Source: a virus
Taxonomy: Duplodnaviria > Caudoviricetes
Length of the DNA stretch: 64,000 bases
Reading direction: 5' to 3' (one strand)
Virus record (IMG/VR): IMGVR_UViG_3300031953_000001
The notes beneath the pieces are model-generated. The model ran no database searches, was not told the DNA's origin, and worked only from the letters and a program-made list of their open reading frames with translations. A program made the position numbers and the translations under genes. Shown piece after piece: positions 3,175-7,760 of the stretch; position 1 is the first letter of the stretch; the number at the start of each line of letters is the position of its first letter.

Positions 3175-4049
3175 GACGTCTGTCCTTCGTTCAGGTACCC
3201 GCGCAGCACTTGCAGTACTTGTTGGAGAGTGTGTATGTCGGCCAAACGCGCTTCCAGGCGATCGCTGGCTTTATCCACGGCCACCACCGGCGCTTCACCC
3301 GTTGCAAGAGCGGCGGCCATGTATTCCCGCGCAATCTCGTCGATCGACATGGTCTCATCGTTCAAGGTTTGGTTCAGATAAGTCGCCAAGGAGTACCCAA
3401 GACGACCCCCATCGTGAATCAAGGCGACAAAGTGTTCGGGGTTGTGCCGGTCGATGAAGTCTTTAACGATGGCACGGGTGTGTTCGCCCACCCCGGTTTC
3501 GCCGTCAACCCGTTCTATGTCGACATCGGCGATCTCATCGTCTTCCTCGTCTTCGTCCACATCCACGAACTCCACCATCTGACTGGAGTTGGCTATAAAC
3601 CGCTGGATCAACGATGGTTGAACATAGTCGATTGCCTGTAGGTACCGCTCGGAATCGGTGGCGTGAACCAAAGCCAAGATATCCGCAAAGATCTCTTCTG
3701 GCAGATCGTCTTGATCGCAGATGTCCAAGATGGCCTGTTGATCGCTGTAATCGATGATGTCGTCCATACCCGTGAAGATCGCCACCAAAGTACCCAACTC
3801 ACGGTCCTTGATACCAATGGCGTATTCGGAGATCAAATCCACCAACGATTGTGCGATGGCGTTTTCAGCGTAATCGATCAAATCCACCGTGGTCATATCT
3901 TCCGCCAGGGACAGAAGATTTTCCACCGCCAAATGGTGGGTACGGTGACCCACACCGGTTAAGACGTGGTCAGCGTGTAAGAAGGCGGAGCGCCTGGCTT
4001 CGGGTACCACTTCGTTGATAAAATTCATTAGAATGCTGCTCATGACCAT
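3171..4049 (-). CDS. conserved hypothetical protein (phiKZ gp79-like position)
   Basis: 292 aa ORF with 4-nt ATGA overlap into the RNAP gene; ATGGTATG motif upstream. Confidence 0.65.
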   Translation of the reverse strand: MVMSSILMNFINEVVPEARRSAFLHADHVLTGVGHRTHHLAVENLLSLAEDMTTVDLIDYAENAIAQSLVDLISEYAIGIKDRELGTLVAIFTGMDDIIDYSDQQAILDICDQDDLPEEIFADILALVHATDSERYLQAIDYVQPSLIQRFIANSSQMVEFVDVDEDEEDDEIADVDIERVDGETGVGEHTRAIVKDFIDRHNPEHFVALIHDGGRLGYSLATYLNQTLNDETMSIDEIAREYMAAALATGEAPVVAVDKASDRLEARLADIHTLQQVLQVLRGYLNEGQTS

Positions 4050-4111
4050 CCTCGCTTAAAATCAAAGAGTACACAGAGCCGTTAAGGTATTGAAAGGGTC
4101 TATGCATCAAC

Positions 4112-4119
4112 CATACCAT
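4112..4119 (-). promoter_or_regulatory. putative late promoter core ATGGTATG
   Basis: CATACCAT on + strand, about 60 nt upstream of the minus-strand ORF; recurs at five other intergenic sites. Confidence 0.5.
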
Positions 4120-4170
4120 CGGTTTCATCTGTCGGAACTAACCTATTCTATTTAACGCATTTAACAAGGA

Positions 4171-4626
4171 GTGGCTCTCATGCCCAAAAGCAAACCTCCC
4201 CGCAAGAAGACGTCCCCGGGCGTGTACACCAAACCCAGTAAGAACAGCATCATGAAGGACCTGCGTGAGCTGGACAATGCGTGTGAAGAGATGCTGTCTG
4301 CCACCGCTGAGTTCGCGCCTTACCTAGTCAATCGCGATCTGGTCGAGGCAGGCGATGTTGAGAAGATCGAAAACAACGCCAAGATCCTGACACGGGATAC
4401 GGTTCAGTTGAAAACCGATCTGACCAGCATCCGCCGGGAAGTGCCAACCAAACTGAACCCCGAGAAGACCGACGACGTCATGTTGGGTCTGTCCATCGGC
4501 GAGAAGTACAACAGCTGGCAAGAGAACTACCAGCGGGCCGTGTTGCCCACCGTTCTGCGTTTGAGCGAGTTGTTTAAAGCCGCGGCCGTGCGTTTGAAGG
4601 AAAAGAAGGAAAGCACCGATGAGTGA
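4171..4626 (+). CDS. hypothetical coiled-coil protein
   Basis: 151 aa ORF, AAGGAG upstream, overlaps the next gene by 8 nt; in-frame ATG at 4180 is the likelier start. Confidence 0.7.
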   Translation: MALMPKSKPPRKKTSPGVYTKPSKNSIMKDLRELDNACEEMLSATAEFAPYLVNRDLVEAGDVEKIENNAKILTRDTVQLKTDLTSIRREVPTKLNPEKTDDVMLGLSIGEKYNSWQENYQRAVLPTVLRLSELFKAAAVRLKEKKESTDE

Positions 4627-6133
4627 TCCAACCAAACCCGATGACCAGACATCACCTGAAGGTCAAGTCGAGACTCCAATCCCAGAGGCGGCTGCCGAGC
4701 CAACCGCTCAAACACCGCCTGTGGTTGATCCTAATAAAACGCTGTATGAACAGATACGTCCTATTGTGGCACCCCTGACCGACGAAGACAAAGCCCGTCG
4801 GTTTGACGACGCTATCTTCTTGTTGATGTCCTCTCGGGAAATCGCCACCAAACACTTGGACGATGTGAAACCTGATCAATTGACCGGAGGACGCGCTGAT
4901 CTGCTGCGCTGGCAGCAAAGCATTCGAGCCGTTGACCCACATTACCCGGACACCAACGTGAGTCCCTTTGAACGCCCAGGCGGCCACTGGCGTCAAGCGG
5001 TTGAGAATGAAGGCGATGAGTTGACCGCTGGCCGACCTCGATTGAATCAAACCTCCGGTAAGGTCACCGGCGAATCGGCACTGTTGAGGGTACGTGCGGC
5101 GGTAGGTCTAGGTACCATCACCAACGTGCCTCTGTGGCACTCCGGACTTTGGTTAAAGCTCAAGGCTCCCTCGGAAAGCACCTTACTGGAACTTGAACGT
5201 CGGATCGCCCGAGACAAGACCATTCTGGGAAGATCCACCATGGGCGTGGCTTTCTCCAACGTGTCGGTGTACACCCAATCCAATCTGACGGACATGATCT
5301 TTAACCACGTCTACGATGGGTCGGTGAAAGATCTGTCGGTGAAGGCATTGAAAGAGCAAGTGTTGATTACCGACATTCCTCAGTTGGTCTGGGGTATGGC
5401 GTCCACCATCTGGCCCAACGGCTACCGTTTGGTTCGGCCCTGTGTTAAAGACCCAGCCGTCTGTACGCACACCGACGAAGCACACGTTAACCTGAGTAAG
5501 CTGTCGTGGGTCAACAACCGCATGGTATCTAAGTTCCAACGCAACCTGATGAGCGATCGCGACGGTAAGTTCACCGACGACCATCTCTCGACTTACCGCA
5601 AGGAACACAAAGCCCCGCAAACTCGAATGATCAAAATCAACGACGGTTTAAGCTTAAAGCTTCAGGTACCCACGATCGCGGATTACGAGCACTGCGGTTT
5701 CCGTTGGGTCGATGAGATTGAACGCATGACCGACGAAGCCTTCGGCCAACGTCTGCGTGGGGAAGAGCGCGAGCAGTACATCCTACAGCAAAGCGCCATG
5801 ACCAACCTACGTCGATACAGCCATTGGGTGAAAGAGGTGGTCTTCTCTGAGGACTCGGTCACTGAAGACCGTGAGTCGGTAGACGAGGCGTTAGACAGTC
5901 TCTCTGGAGACGCCCGGGTCAGCAACATGATCATCGAACAGATCGAAGGCTTCATGCGCGACTGTGTGATCAACGCCATTGGCATCCCCAGCTACGATTG
6001 TCCTAAGTGCGGTCAACCGCCCAACGAAGACGACTTACCCCGCCACCTGAATGAGATCATTCAACTGGAGGTCAATGAGATTTTTTTTACCCTACACTAC
6101 ATGAGGGTTTTAGGGATCTTGGAAAGCGACTAG
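4619..6133 (+). CDS. conserved jumbo-phage protein with C-terminal CPKCG knuckle; candidate tail/baseplate assembly chaperone (frameshift parent)
   Basis: 504 aa ORF; YDCPKCG; T8 slippery run near the 3' end. Confidence 0.75.
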   Translation: MSDPTKPDDQTSPEGQVETPIPEAAAEPTAQTPPVVDPNKTLYEQIRPIVAPLTDEDKARRFDDAIFLLMSSREIATKHLDDVKPDQLTGGRADLLRWQQSIRAVDPHYPDTNVSPFERPGGHWRQAVENEGDELTAGRPRLNQTSGKVTGESALLRVRAAVGLGTITNVPLWHSGLWLKLKAPSESTLLELERRIARDKTILGRSTMGVAFSNVSVYTQSNLTDMIFNHVYDGSVKDLSVKALKEQVLITDIPQLVWGMASTIWPNGYRLVRPCVKDPAVCTHTDEAHVNLSKLSWVNNRMVSKFQRNLMSDRDGKFTDDHLSTYRKEHKAPQTRMIKINDGLSLKLQVPTIADYEHCGFRWVDEIERMTDEAFGQRLRGEEREQYILQQSAMTNLRRYSHWVKEVVFSEDSVTEDRESVDEALDSLSGDARVSNMIIEQIEGFMRDCVINAIGIPSYDCPKCGQPPNEDDLPRHLNEIIQLEVNEIFFTLHYMRVLGILESD

Positions 6134-6159
6134 CTGGCCAAGCCAAACCCCATGTAGTG
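6082..6159 (+). promoter_or_regulatory. programmed -1 ribosomal frameshift signal
   Basis: T_TTT_TTT heptamer (6082-6088), 6-nt spacer, 15-bp stem (6095-6110 with 6145-6159, one bulged A); -1 frame is open into the next ORF. Confidence 0.8.
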
Positions 6160-6594
6160 GATCGCGTGTACGGGCTGACGCGGGTGCACAGCAACCCGTT
6201 GTTCGACAAGACGCTTAGGAACACCGGGGTACTCACCTCCGATCAGGCGCAAGTGGTGCGCTCGATGTTGTACGACGTGTCGTTTGACATCCATGACCAT
6301 TACTCACCGGACAGCACTAACCCACTGAACACCGTGGCGGTGCATGAACGGGAGGACTATCGGGAGTTGGATGGGCTCTATCACAGCGTCTGGCGTTACG
6401 ATCAGCAAGACATCAAAGGTCGGTTTGGGCTGTCTGTGGTGGAGTACCTGGAGCTTCCTCGGGACGTCATAGAGACGTTGACCTCGGTGGGTGAACGCGC
6501 CAACAAACGCATGCAAACCATCGAGGCCAACGCCAAACAAGGGGGCGCTAATGACCATCAGTCTGGAAACCCGTGGCGACATCTTCGAAAGTAA
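6088..6594 (+). CDS. -1 frame extension (C-terminal part of a predicted 658 aa fusion with 4619-6088); listed in the ORF track as 6157-6594
   Basis: Frame is open from just after TGA 6076-6078 to TAA 6592-6594; GTG 6157 has no RBS and sits in the stem; FGLSVVEYLELPRDVIE motif. Confidence 0.7.
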   Translation, partial: YPTLHEGFRDLGKRLAGQAKPHVVDRVYGLTRVHSNPLFDKTLRNTGVLTSDQAQVVRSMLYDVSFDIHDHYSPDSTNPLNTVAVHEREDYRELDGLYHSVWRYDQQDIKGRFGLSVVEYLELPRDVIETLTSVGERANKRMQTIEANAKQGGANDHQSGNPWRHLRK

Positions 6595-7000
6595 GGCCAG
6601 CGTCTTACTGTGCCCTGCCAATACGGTGGGGGCCATGGGCAAAGGGTTGGCGCAGGTGTTTCGACACCGCCATCCGGATCTGTATTACCGGTACAAACAA
6701 CAGTGCCGCAAGCGTCGGTTTCACCCCGAGACCTTGATGTTGTTCAGTCCAGCAAAGAGTCCGTATAAGGTTCTGATGGCCCCGACTAAGGTACATTGGA
6801 AAGACCCATCGCCTCCTGAGTTGGTTGAGAAGACCCTTGAGCGCATCGCCTGGTTGGGTGAACAAGGCCGCATCGCCAGTCTGGCCTTGCCCCCTCTGGG
6901 GTGCGGTGAAGGTGGGTTGGACTTTGATCAGGTGCGGAAGTGGATCTACCAGTACTTGGACCCTAACCCAATGGAGGTAGAGATCTGGTTGGGCCCATAA
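6551..7000 (+). CDS. macrodomain ADP-ribosylhydrolase, DarG-like
   Basis: GDIF...PANTVGAMGKGLA..F, PTKVHWK, SLALPPLGCGEGGL; ATG 6551 after GGGGG. Confidence 0.9.
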   Translation: MTISLETRGDIFESKASVLLCPANTVGAMGKGLAQVFRHRHPDLYYRYKQQCRKRRFHPETLMLFSPAKSPYKVLMAPTKVHWKDPSPPELVEKTLERIAWLGEQGRIASLALPPLGCGEGGLDFDQVRKWIYQYLDPNPMEVEIWLGP

Positions 7001-7023
7001 AGATTCAGACTCAACCCTATTTC

Positions 7024-7043
7024 AAACCTACATCATACCCGTG
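7024..7043 (+). promoter_or_regulatory. putative early promoter (variant)
   Basis: AAACCTACATCATACCCGTG resembles AAACCTATATCACACAGGTG; intergenic, upstream of 7086. Confidence 0.4.
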
Positions 7044-7085
7044 AGTTACCCACCACCCACAATCTATTTTTAGGAGCATACCCAC

Positions 7086-7760
7086 ATGCAAGCTACTGTT
7101 TGGGAAAAAGCGGGCAAGACGTTGCTGGCCACCGCCGTGCACGCCGGCATGAACCGCTTGAGCGGCGAACACTACATCCAACTGACCGACGGCATTGAGA
7201 CGTTCGTGATCCACGGCGACGACTTGAATGAAACCGCCAAAGAAATCACCGACAGCCTACGCCCCCACGAATTCACTCACACGCTGTCCATGCAAACCCA
7301 CGGCGGCGACGAACAAGCGACGGTGCAGATGTTGGATCTGATGATGCAGCAGTGTTCGTTCTTGACCGCCAACGGCGCTATTCCGTTTTCAGTCATTACC
7401 GAAGATCAAGTGAACACCGTGCGAGAGAAGTACGAGGACTTAAGCGAAGCGGTGGGTTACTGGAACCGTGGCGTGGCGTTCTTGGACCACGAACCCAACC
7501 GAGACACAGGCGATATGGAGCTGGTGATCCGGTTGGTGTTGCACGGAGTGATCTTTGCCAGTCGTATCCAAACCGACGATGGCACACCGTTGCAGGAGTT
7601 TGAGTTGTCAAGCAATTATCAAGCACGTCCTCGGTTCAACAGCGACGCCATAGAAACCTTAGGCGGCGCCTTAACCGTGGCGTTCGATTTGGTGTACGTC
7701 TCAGAACCGGCCTTTGAAGAAGTTCCTGATGATGAAGCCACTGACCTGAACCTTAACTGA
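7086..7760 (+). CDS. hypothetical protein
   Basis: 224 aa ORF with AGGAG RBS, followed by a terminator. Confidence 0.75.
   Translation: MQATVWEKAGKTLLATAVHAGMNRLSGEHYIQLTDGIETFVIHGDDLNETAKEITDSLRPHEFTHTLSMQTHGGDEQATVQMLDLMMQQCSFLTANGAIPFSVITEDQVNTVREKYEDLSEAVGYWNRGVAFLDHEPNRDTGDMELVIRLVLHGVIFASRIQTDDGTPLQEFELSSNYQARPRFNSDAIETLGGALTVAFDLVYVSEPAFEEVPDDEATDLNLN

Follow-up and report, generated by a model that had tools for sequence, protein, structure and literature searches.

Programmed −1 ribosomal frameshifting is a mechanism of a known kind, and for the locus described here the closest layouts are those of E. coli dnaX, as regards the cassette, and of the tail chaperones of phages lambda, P2 and Mu, as regards the logic of the isoforms. 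In dnaX, the source of tau and gamma, an upstream Shine-Dalgarno (SD)-like sequence is combined with an in-phase heptamer of the X_XXY_YYZ type (A_AAA_AAG) and a downstream stem-loop. Frameshifts in the tail assembly chaperone genes of lambda (G/GT), P2 (E/E+E′) and Mu were reportedly described by Xu, Hendrix and Duda in 2004. Here, we analyzed a stretch of DNA of 64,000 nucleotides (nt; hereafter the window) from virus record IMGVR_UViG_3300031953_000001 (Duplodnaviria; Caudoviricetes), a phiKZ-like jumbo phage from brine. Judging from its sequence and that of its relatives, the gp77/cg18 gene of this phage, called open reading frame 1 (ORF1) below, probably contains a programmed −1 ribosomal frameshift site, at which some ribosomes would pass into a downstream frame (ORF2).

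The clade to which the window belongs shares this three-part layout with dnaX, its SD-like GGAGG lying 10 nt before the heptamer and its stable stem-loop 6–7 nt after it. The heptamer here, however, is U_UUU_UUU, the proteins are unrelated, and both stimulators are missing from most relatives. Moreover, the shifted frame of dnaX stops at once and yields a shorter product, whereas the shift proposed here would add 168 residues. The likeness to lambda, P2 and Mu lies in a conserved −1 shift near the end of a morphogenesis gene, which yields one short protein and one extended at its C-terminus, and in its retention across relatives that have diverged to 20–30% identity, often without an obvious RNA stimulator. 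By contrast, ORF1 encodes 504 amino acids (aa) rather than ~100–150 aa, and does not lie between tube and tape-measure genes. Given its position, the misfit in size and the lack of a match to a chaperone family, the gp77/cg18 pair does not appear to belong to the G/GT family. A further group of recoding sites works by transcriptional slippage (Shigella mxiE with T9, Thermus dnaX with A9, and the editing sites of paramyxovirus P and Ebola GP). The locus resembles these in that an eight-T homopolymer joins two frames and that one RNA-derived contig carries one T more; it differs in that relatives with only T5–T6 keep the arrangement, and in the conservation of the heptamer phase and the downstream stem.

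The candidate slip site and its conservation

The features on which the analysis turns are as follows (window coordinates):

4619–6133, plus strand: zero-frame ORF1 of 504 aa, homologous to phiKZ gp077 (core gene cg18 of the Chimalliviridae)
6067–6071, plus strand: internal SD-like GGAGG, 10 nt before the heptamer, a candidate dnaX-like 5′ stimulator; conserved in the clade, not family-wide
6076–6078, plus strand: −1-frame TGA that bounds the possible shift region on its 5′ side
6082–6088, plus strand: slippery heptamer U_UUU_UUU in the phase of ORF1, inside a T8 run (6081–6088)
6089–6094, plus strand: 6-nt spacer between heptamer and stem
6095–6159, plus strand: predicted stem-loop of 9 bp, bulge, 6 bp and an inner helix, with the ORF1 stop TAG (6131–6133) in the loop; outer stem conserved in the clade
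6082–6594, plus strand: −1 frame extension (phrog_12109), stop TAA at 6592–6594; predicted long product of 658 aa
6157–6159, plus strand: GTG taken by ORF finders as the start of a 145-aa ORF; inside the stem and a conserved HV..FG motif, not conserved as a start

Reading the letters of the window bore out the initial annotation, which had placed T_TTT_TTT at 6082–6088 in phase with ORF1 and, in the −1 frame, a TGA at 6076–6078 followed by an open frame to the TAA ending at 6594; all of its coordinates and pairings were correct. The ORF1 codons at 6080–6091 are ATT TTT TTT ACC, with residues I488-F489-F490 on AUU UUU UUU, and the −1 TGA sits two bases before the T8 run. Counted from 6082, the −1 frame is open for 170 codons to the TAA at 6592–6594, and the extension adds 168 residues. 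It had also been suggested that an indel error in the T8 run would undo the frameshift reading. This objection fails, as the run is T8 in nine independent, near-identical contigs (from JGI, ENA and Logan). The same phage was found in many brine metagenomes.

A tblastn search with ORF1 returned 226 GenBank phage records, all of phiKZ-like jumbo phages, and a DNA-level search of GenBank phages returned two short matches only. Relatives in IMG/VR were found by an alignment-based search, a single-protein query having given none. Junctions were inspected in LucasX, Eowyn, RAY, PhiPA3 and AgentSmith, in phiKZ, Goslar, SPN3US and PCH45, in 80 IMG/VR contigs, and in nine close relatives at 55–80% identity; site statistics were scored by script on 84 loci from IMG/VR and GenBank. 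In all 84, a T-run lies 8–21 codons ahead of the ORF1 stop, and the −1 frame after it is open for 148–180 codons, whereas the +1 frame is mostly shut within 20 codons. A perfect in-phase heptamer was present at 69 of the 84 loci, as T_TTT_TTT, T_TTT_TTC or, in AgentSmith, T_TTT_TTA. It was also present in all nine close relatives and in all four of phiKZ, Goslar, SPN3US and PCH45; the phiKZ site, for example, reads ACT TTT TTT ACT (a T7 run) and opens a −1 frame of ~168 codons. T-runs span T5 to T9, with T5 or T6 at 17 of the 84 loci, and three loci (L035, L042 and L077) form a perfect T_TTT_TTC heptamer from only six T's. Finding the same site and frame relation in every relative examined points to more than chance, and the conservation across phiKZ-like genomes that the initial annotation had asked for is present.

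One group of IMG/VR loci (L023–L030, at about 3618–3700) stands apart. It reads CTT TTT ATT ATC, a T5 run without a canonical heptamer, with a −1 stop 5 nt upstream of the run and, from 2 nt downstream of it, a strong hairpin (z down to −5.3). Even so, the −1 frame continues for 174–177 open codons, and the site may be a non-canonical, single-tRNA slip site.

Codon usage at the site was counted over 78 non-redundant loci. The first Phe codon of the site is TTT in all 78, versus 453 of 1183 Phe codons (38%) elsewhere in ORF1, and it is kept even where a genome uses TTT for none of its 15–19 other ORF1 Phe codons, as in several high-GC genomes. Phe-Phe dipeptides elsewhere in ORF1 are encoded TTC-TTT or TTC-TTC without exception (29/29), never TTT TTT, and only two T-type heptamers occur among the remaining 41,887 codons of these genes. 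The Phe pair near the end of T4 gp26 (...KEFFELL), which no −1 ORF follows, is encoded TTC TTT. These counts argue that selection at the site acts on nucleotides, beyond a Phe-Phe protein motif, and the absence of TTT TTT elsewhere in ORF1 homologues looks like avoidance of accidental slippery sites.

We noted that many relatives offer no start codon from which ORF2 could be translated in full. The first ATG, GTG or TTG of the −1 frame comes at codon 153/156 in L043, 138 in L053, 89 in AgentSmith, 82 in L070, 72 in L041 and 70 in RAY. The FFYP and HV..P.FG motifs, which are conserved among 40 aligned −1 products, fall within the first 20–45 residues and precede most candidate starts, including those of L043, L053, AgentSmith, L070 and RAY. 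The tblastn matches of ORF2 start at the slip site, overlapping the end of the upstream gene, and its called starts vary even inside the window's clade. In the window itself, the GTG at 6157 codes the second V of PHVVDRVYG. It had been described as lacking an SD sequence and as buried in the stem, and both statements held: no GGAGG-like sequence occurs in the upstream bases read, and the RNA fold places the GTG in the 3′ arm. Independent initiation there, named earlier as a way to refute the frameshift, is unlikely for a codon that forms part of a conserved motif and is not retained as a start in relatives. Collectively, these observations argue that the downstream ORF cannot stand alone in translation.

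The public annotation of phiKZ (NC_004629; L095, 2766–3269) includes only the last 80 codons of the extension, as PHIKZ076.4. The 219 nt between the gp77 stop and PHIKZ076.4 hold no annotated gene, and the −1 frame is open there from the T7 run. A frameshift is annotated in none of the public records examined, and no paper describing one at the gp77 locus was found in the searchable library, where matches to 'gp77' reflect the numbering of other phages; this agrees with the earlier statement that none was known at this locus in phiKZ-like phages. Two longer homologues, P0046 and P0047, were considered as natural ORF1-ORF2 fusions and rejected on inspection.

Stem-loop and upstream SD-like element

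An RNA fold of 6076–6175 had a minimum free energy of −35.7 kcal/mol (z = −3.57), and 200 shuffled sequences were all less stable; the stem also outranked all 40 control positions. In this fold, 6095–6103 pairs with 6151–6159 (9 bp) and, beyond a bulged A at 6104, 6105–6110 pairs with 6145–6150 (6 bp), with further inner pairs. The 15-bp stem described initially, 6 nt downstream of the heptamer, was thereby recovered as 9 + 6 bp around the bulged A. The GGAGG at 6067–6071 is an element that the initial annotation did not contain.

Both elements recur among the ten sequences of the window's clade. All ten have T8 in the identical phase, and all ten keep the upstream CTGGAGGTN (GGAGG or GAGG). 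In the outer stem, which starts 7 nt after the heptamer, ACTACATGAGG pairs with CCTCATGTAGT; 11 pairs are kept, with one compensatory C-G to A-U change and several G-U changes, and the loop is variable. By these sequence features, the window's clade carries a putative dnaX-like three-part cassette of SD-like GGAGG, heptamer and stem-loop. Strong hairpins at the right distance also occur in some other clades (L023–30; L035/38/43/56/57; L070; L072–75). The covarying stem that the initial annotation had proposed to look for was therefore seen within the window's clade, and did not extend to the whole family, where the stem is lineage-specific. A search of 5800–6500 matched no Rfam family, and no terminator-like site was found at the stem-loop.

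Proposed mechanism and competing explanations

We propose that GGAGG would pair with 16S rRNA while the stem-loop hinders mRNA entry, so that the ribosome would pause, and that two tRNA-Phe would then re-pair one base back on U_UUU_UUU. Translation would continue in the −1 frame as ...IFF-YPTLHEG..., with ...EIFFYPTLHEGFR as the predicted junction peptide in this phage. Ribosomes that do not slip would read 14 more codons and complete the 504-aa protein with its predicted C-terminal helix. Those that slip would make a protein of 658 aa, in which a linker of ~25 aa and a conserved, helical domain of ~140 aa take the place of this helix. The two products of 504 and ~658 aa foreseen in the initial annotation are supported by the conserved site and frame relation and by the clade-conserved stem, the long product being a prediction.

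Several observations weigh against this mechanism. U_UUU_UUU lies outside the group of most efficient bacterial heptamers, and ~15 of the 84 loci lack a perfect heptamer, with G_TTT_TTT (T6; PhiPA3 is among them) or CTT_TTT_ATT (T5) in its place. Family-wide, downstream hairpins were not enriched over control positions (median percentile 0.49), and an SD-like upstream motif was found at 4 of 70 loci versus 3.2 expected. In view of these negative tests, neither stimulator is claimed as a family feature, and many relatives would need to shift on the heptamer alone. Lastly, a Logan contig from the METATRANSCRIPTOMIC RNA-Seq run SRR9031945 (X14; L105/L111) has T9 instead of T8, and a continuous gene of 658 aa, the length predicted for the long product, is called on it; T9 fuses the two frames, so no ribosomal slip would be needed.

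The last observation bears directly on transcriptional slippage, in which the phage or host RNA polymerase would add a U on the T8 run and the U9 mRNA would be translated into the identical 658-aa protein, as the main or an additional route. Because the product is identical, the comparative protein data fit this explanation equally well, and runs of 8–9 U are the type of site at which bacterial RNA polymerase slips, as in Shigella mxiE (T9) and Thermus dnaX (A9). The T9 contig, however, also differs by one single-nucleotide polymorphism and may be a genomic variant, and RNA libraries can hold DNA. Its origin could lie in RNA polymerase slippage, in a genomic variant, or in reverse-transcription or assembly noise, the run-length comparison being one of contigs rather than reads. 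Transcriptional slippage goes with a long homopolymer, usually of at least nine, that is kept in relatives, whereas the runs here range from T5 to T9. At the 17 loci with T5 or T6, too short for efficient slippage, the frame relation is kept nonetheless; three T6 loci form a perfect heptamer; and the conserved stem 6–7 nt downstream and SD-like sequence 10 nt upstream would serve ribosomal slippage only. Ribosomal slippage is favored on the strength of these T5–T6 relatives, the three six-T heptamers and the ribosome-acting elements conserved in the clade, and we consider transcriptional slippage unlikely as the main route, though it may contribute.

A pair of separate genes, with ORF1 ending at 6133, ORF2 translated on its own from the GTG at 6157 or else by reinitiation or coupling, and a T-run that merely codes Phe-Phe, would match the calls of ORF finders and of all public records examined. 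It would also suit a Phe-Phe motif that is ancestral to the protein and occurs at the end of T4 gp26 as well. Yet the Phe pairs of T4 and of the rest of ORF1 are TTC TTT or TTC TTC and never TTT TTT, many relatives have no ORF2 start codon for 70–153 codons, called starts differ inside the window's clade, and the candidate starts come only after conserved residues. In addition, the GTG sits within a −35 kcal/mol stem with no SD-like sequence in the upstream bases read, and we regard the two-gene explanation as very improbable. Even less credible is an artefact or decay, in which T8 would be a sequencing error in a homopolymer, or would mark a formerly continuous gene that recently acquired a frameshift mutation. 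Contigs of the same phage with T7 (L099 and L109) and T9 (L111) could be cited in its favor, but T8 occurs in nine independent contigs, and an in-frame fusion was found in no relative among more than 95 loci, each of which requires the identical −1 shift. Both T7 contigs originate from one study, in which one contig has three further indels, and T7 was rejected as real variation on that account.

We also noted that the JGI T8 contig and the T9 RNA contig have nearly the same ends (3644 vs 3643 nt), and they may come from similar material with mixed reads. Both span ~4060–7703, starting in the divergent intergenic region 4050–4170, and the only sigma-70-like match of a promoter scan (4090–4119) falls inside this region. 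This suggests one transcript that would run from the gp78-like gene through ORF1, ORF2 and the macro-domain gene into the gene after it (4180 to >7000).

A gp26-like fold and a possible role in assembly

ORF1 corresponds to cg18 of nucleus-forming phages (Goslar gp081, phiKZ gp077, RAY gp267), where it is listed as hypothetical, and matches phrog_4585, a PHROG of unknown function. Its AlphaFold model (predicted local distance difference test score, pLDDT, 80.5; predicted template modeling score, pTM, 0.82) ends in a zero-frame tail helix at 485–503. Sequence and fold searches of the PDB gave no credible match for ORF1. Residues 154–496, however, matched an ESM Atlas cluster whose members belong to PF12322 (T4_baseplate) in 84% of cases, with a template modeling (TM) score of 0.75 by the hit over 249 aligned residues (root-mean-square deviation 3.9). 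Matches in AFDB named 'phage baseplate protein' reached probability 1.00, with a TM of 0.54 by the hit. Among 100 language-model neighbors of ORF1, 86 belonged to the PF12322 set.

These matches point to T4 gp26 (PF12322; NCBI 'gp26 family baseplate hub assembly chaperone'), which resembles ORF1 residues 154–496 in fold and has a CxC, a beta-strand-Pro motif, a CPxCG and a C-terminal FFxL in the same order. In ORF1, the four near-invariant cysteines are C275, C282, C461 and C464, followed by F489, F490 and L492 (FFTL); the T4 gp26 counterparts, in equal order, are C82, C84, C187, C190, F204 and F205. T4 gene 26 (L100, 7803–8429, minus strand) also has two products, gp26 and gp26′, but makes them by internal initiation. 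It further differs in that gene 25 comes immediately next and an ORF2 homologue is lacking, that ORF1 is 2.4 times longer, and that sequence profiles leave the two families unconnected. None of 29 members of the ORF1 family reached the Pfam gathering score of PF12322, and a single one of the 29 matched it at E = 0.2; searches against NCBIfam returned zinc-ribbon noise only, and no tail-chaperone family of Pfam matched. An AFDB row named 'tail assembly chaperone' stood at E = 0.66, the level of chance. Two points count against the functional side of our interpretation: hhalign of the ORF1 family with the gp26 alignment gave a probability of 2.8%, and fold likeness is the sole ground for assigning a function. 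By its predicted structure, ORF1 is gp26-like in fold and not a demonstrated member of the family.

The extension matches phrog_12109, likewise of unknown function. Its model (pLDDT 83.8) has a low-confidence linker of ~25 aa that includes PHVVDRVYG, followed by a helical domain of ~140 aa. No credible match for ORF2 was found in sequence and fold searches of the PDB, no ESM Atlas shape above TM 0.35, and no match by hhalign to T4 gp26, gp28 or gp51. The nearest named language-model neighbor of the extension (6082–6591) was the P2 GpE tail-protein family, at a score of 0.83 that equals chance level. P2 E/E+E′ is a frameshifted tail chaperone.

In the window as in phiKZ, PhiPA3 and Goslar, the neighbors of ORF1 are gp78/gp79-like genes, a virion RNA polymerase subunit, a helicase and a macro-domain gene. 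The locus is syntenic with those of phiKZ and Goslar, down to the macro-domain gene that comes next in Goslar. In the window, this gene (6551–7000; PF01661, E = 8e-12) shares 44 nt with the end of the extension, in a different frame, and the order extension, then macro-domain gene, is common to close relatives and Goslar (gp083). The proteins modeled in the Goslar virion structure paper do not include gp81 and gp82; this fits an assembly factor, though it is mere absence.

Most likely, if the fold is a guide, the two isoforms act in a fixed ratio in tail or baseplate-hub assembly, where the extension, on the model of lambda G/GT, would serve to bring in a second partner. More tentatively, the gp77/cg18 pair of nucleus-forming jumbo phages may serve as a functional counterpart to lambda G/GT that rests on an unrelated, gp26-like scaffold that binds zinc, with a ratio set by recoding that governs baseplate-hub or tape-measure assembly, and with T8–T9 sites that slip at the level of both RNA polymerase and ribosome. 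If such a counterpart exists, the logic of a chaperone made by frameshifting arose independently in the assembly of a contractile-tail hub.

Chimalliviridae phages are models of the phage nucleus and candidates for therapy. A single gene with two products would correct the annotation of more than 200 genomes, whose public records treat the downstream part inconsistently, and would add a conserved domain to the core set. The gp77/cg18 isoforms would give experiments a point of entry to hub or tail assembly, and the natural series of T5–T9 shift sites, with or without SD-like sequence and hairpin, would be useful for studying slippage by the ribosome and perhaps by phage RNA polymerase. The poorly understood T4 gp26 family would, in turn, gain an isoform logic that resembles that of the tail chaperones.

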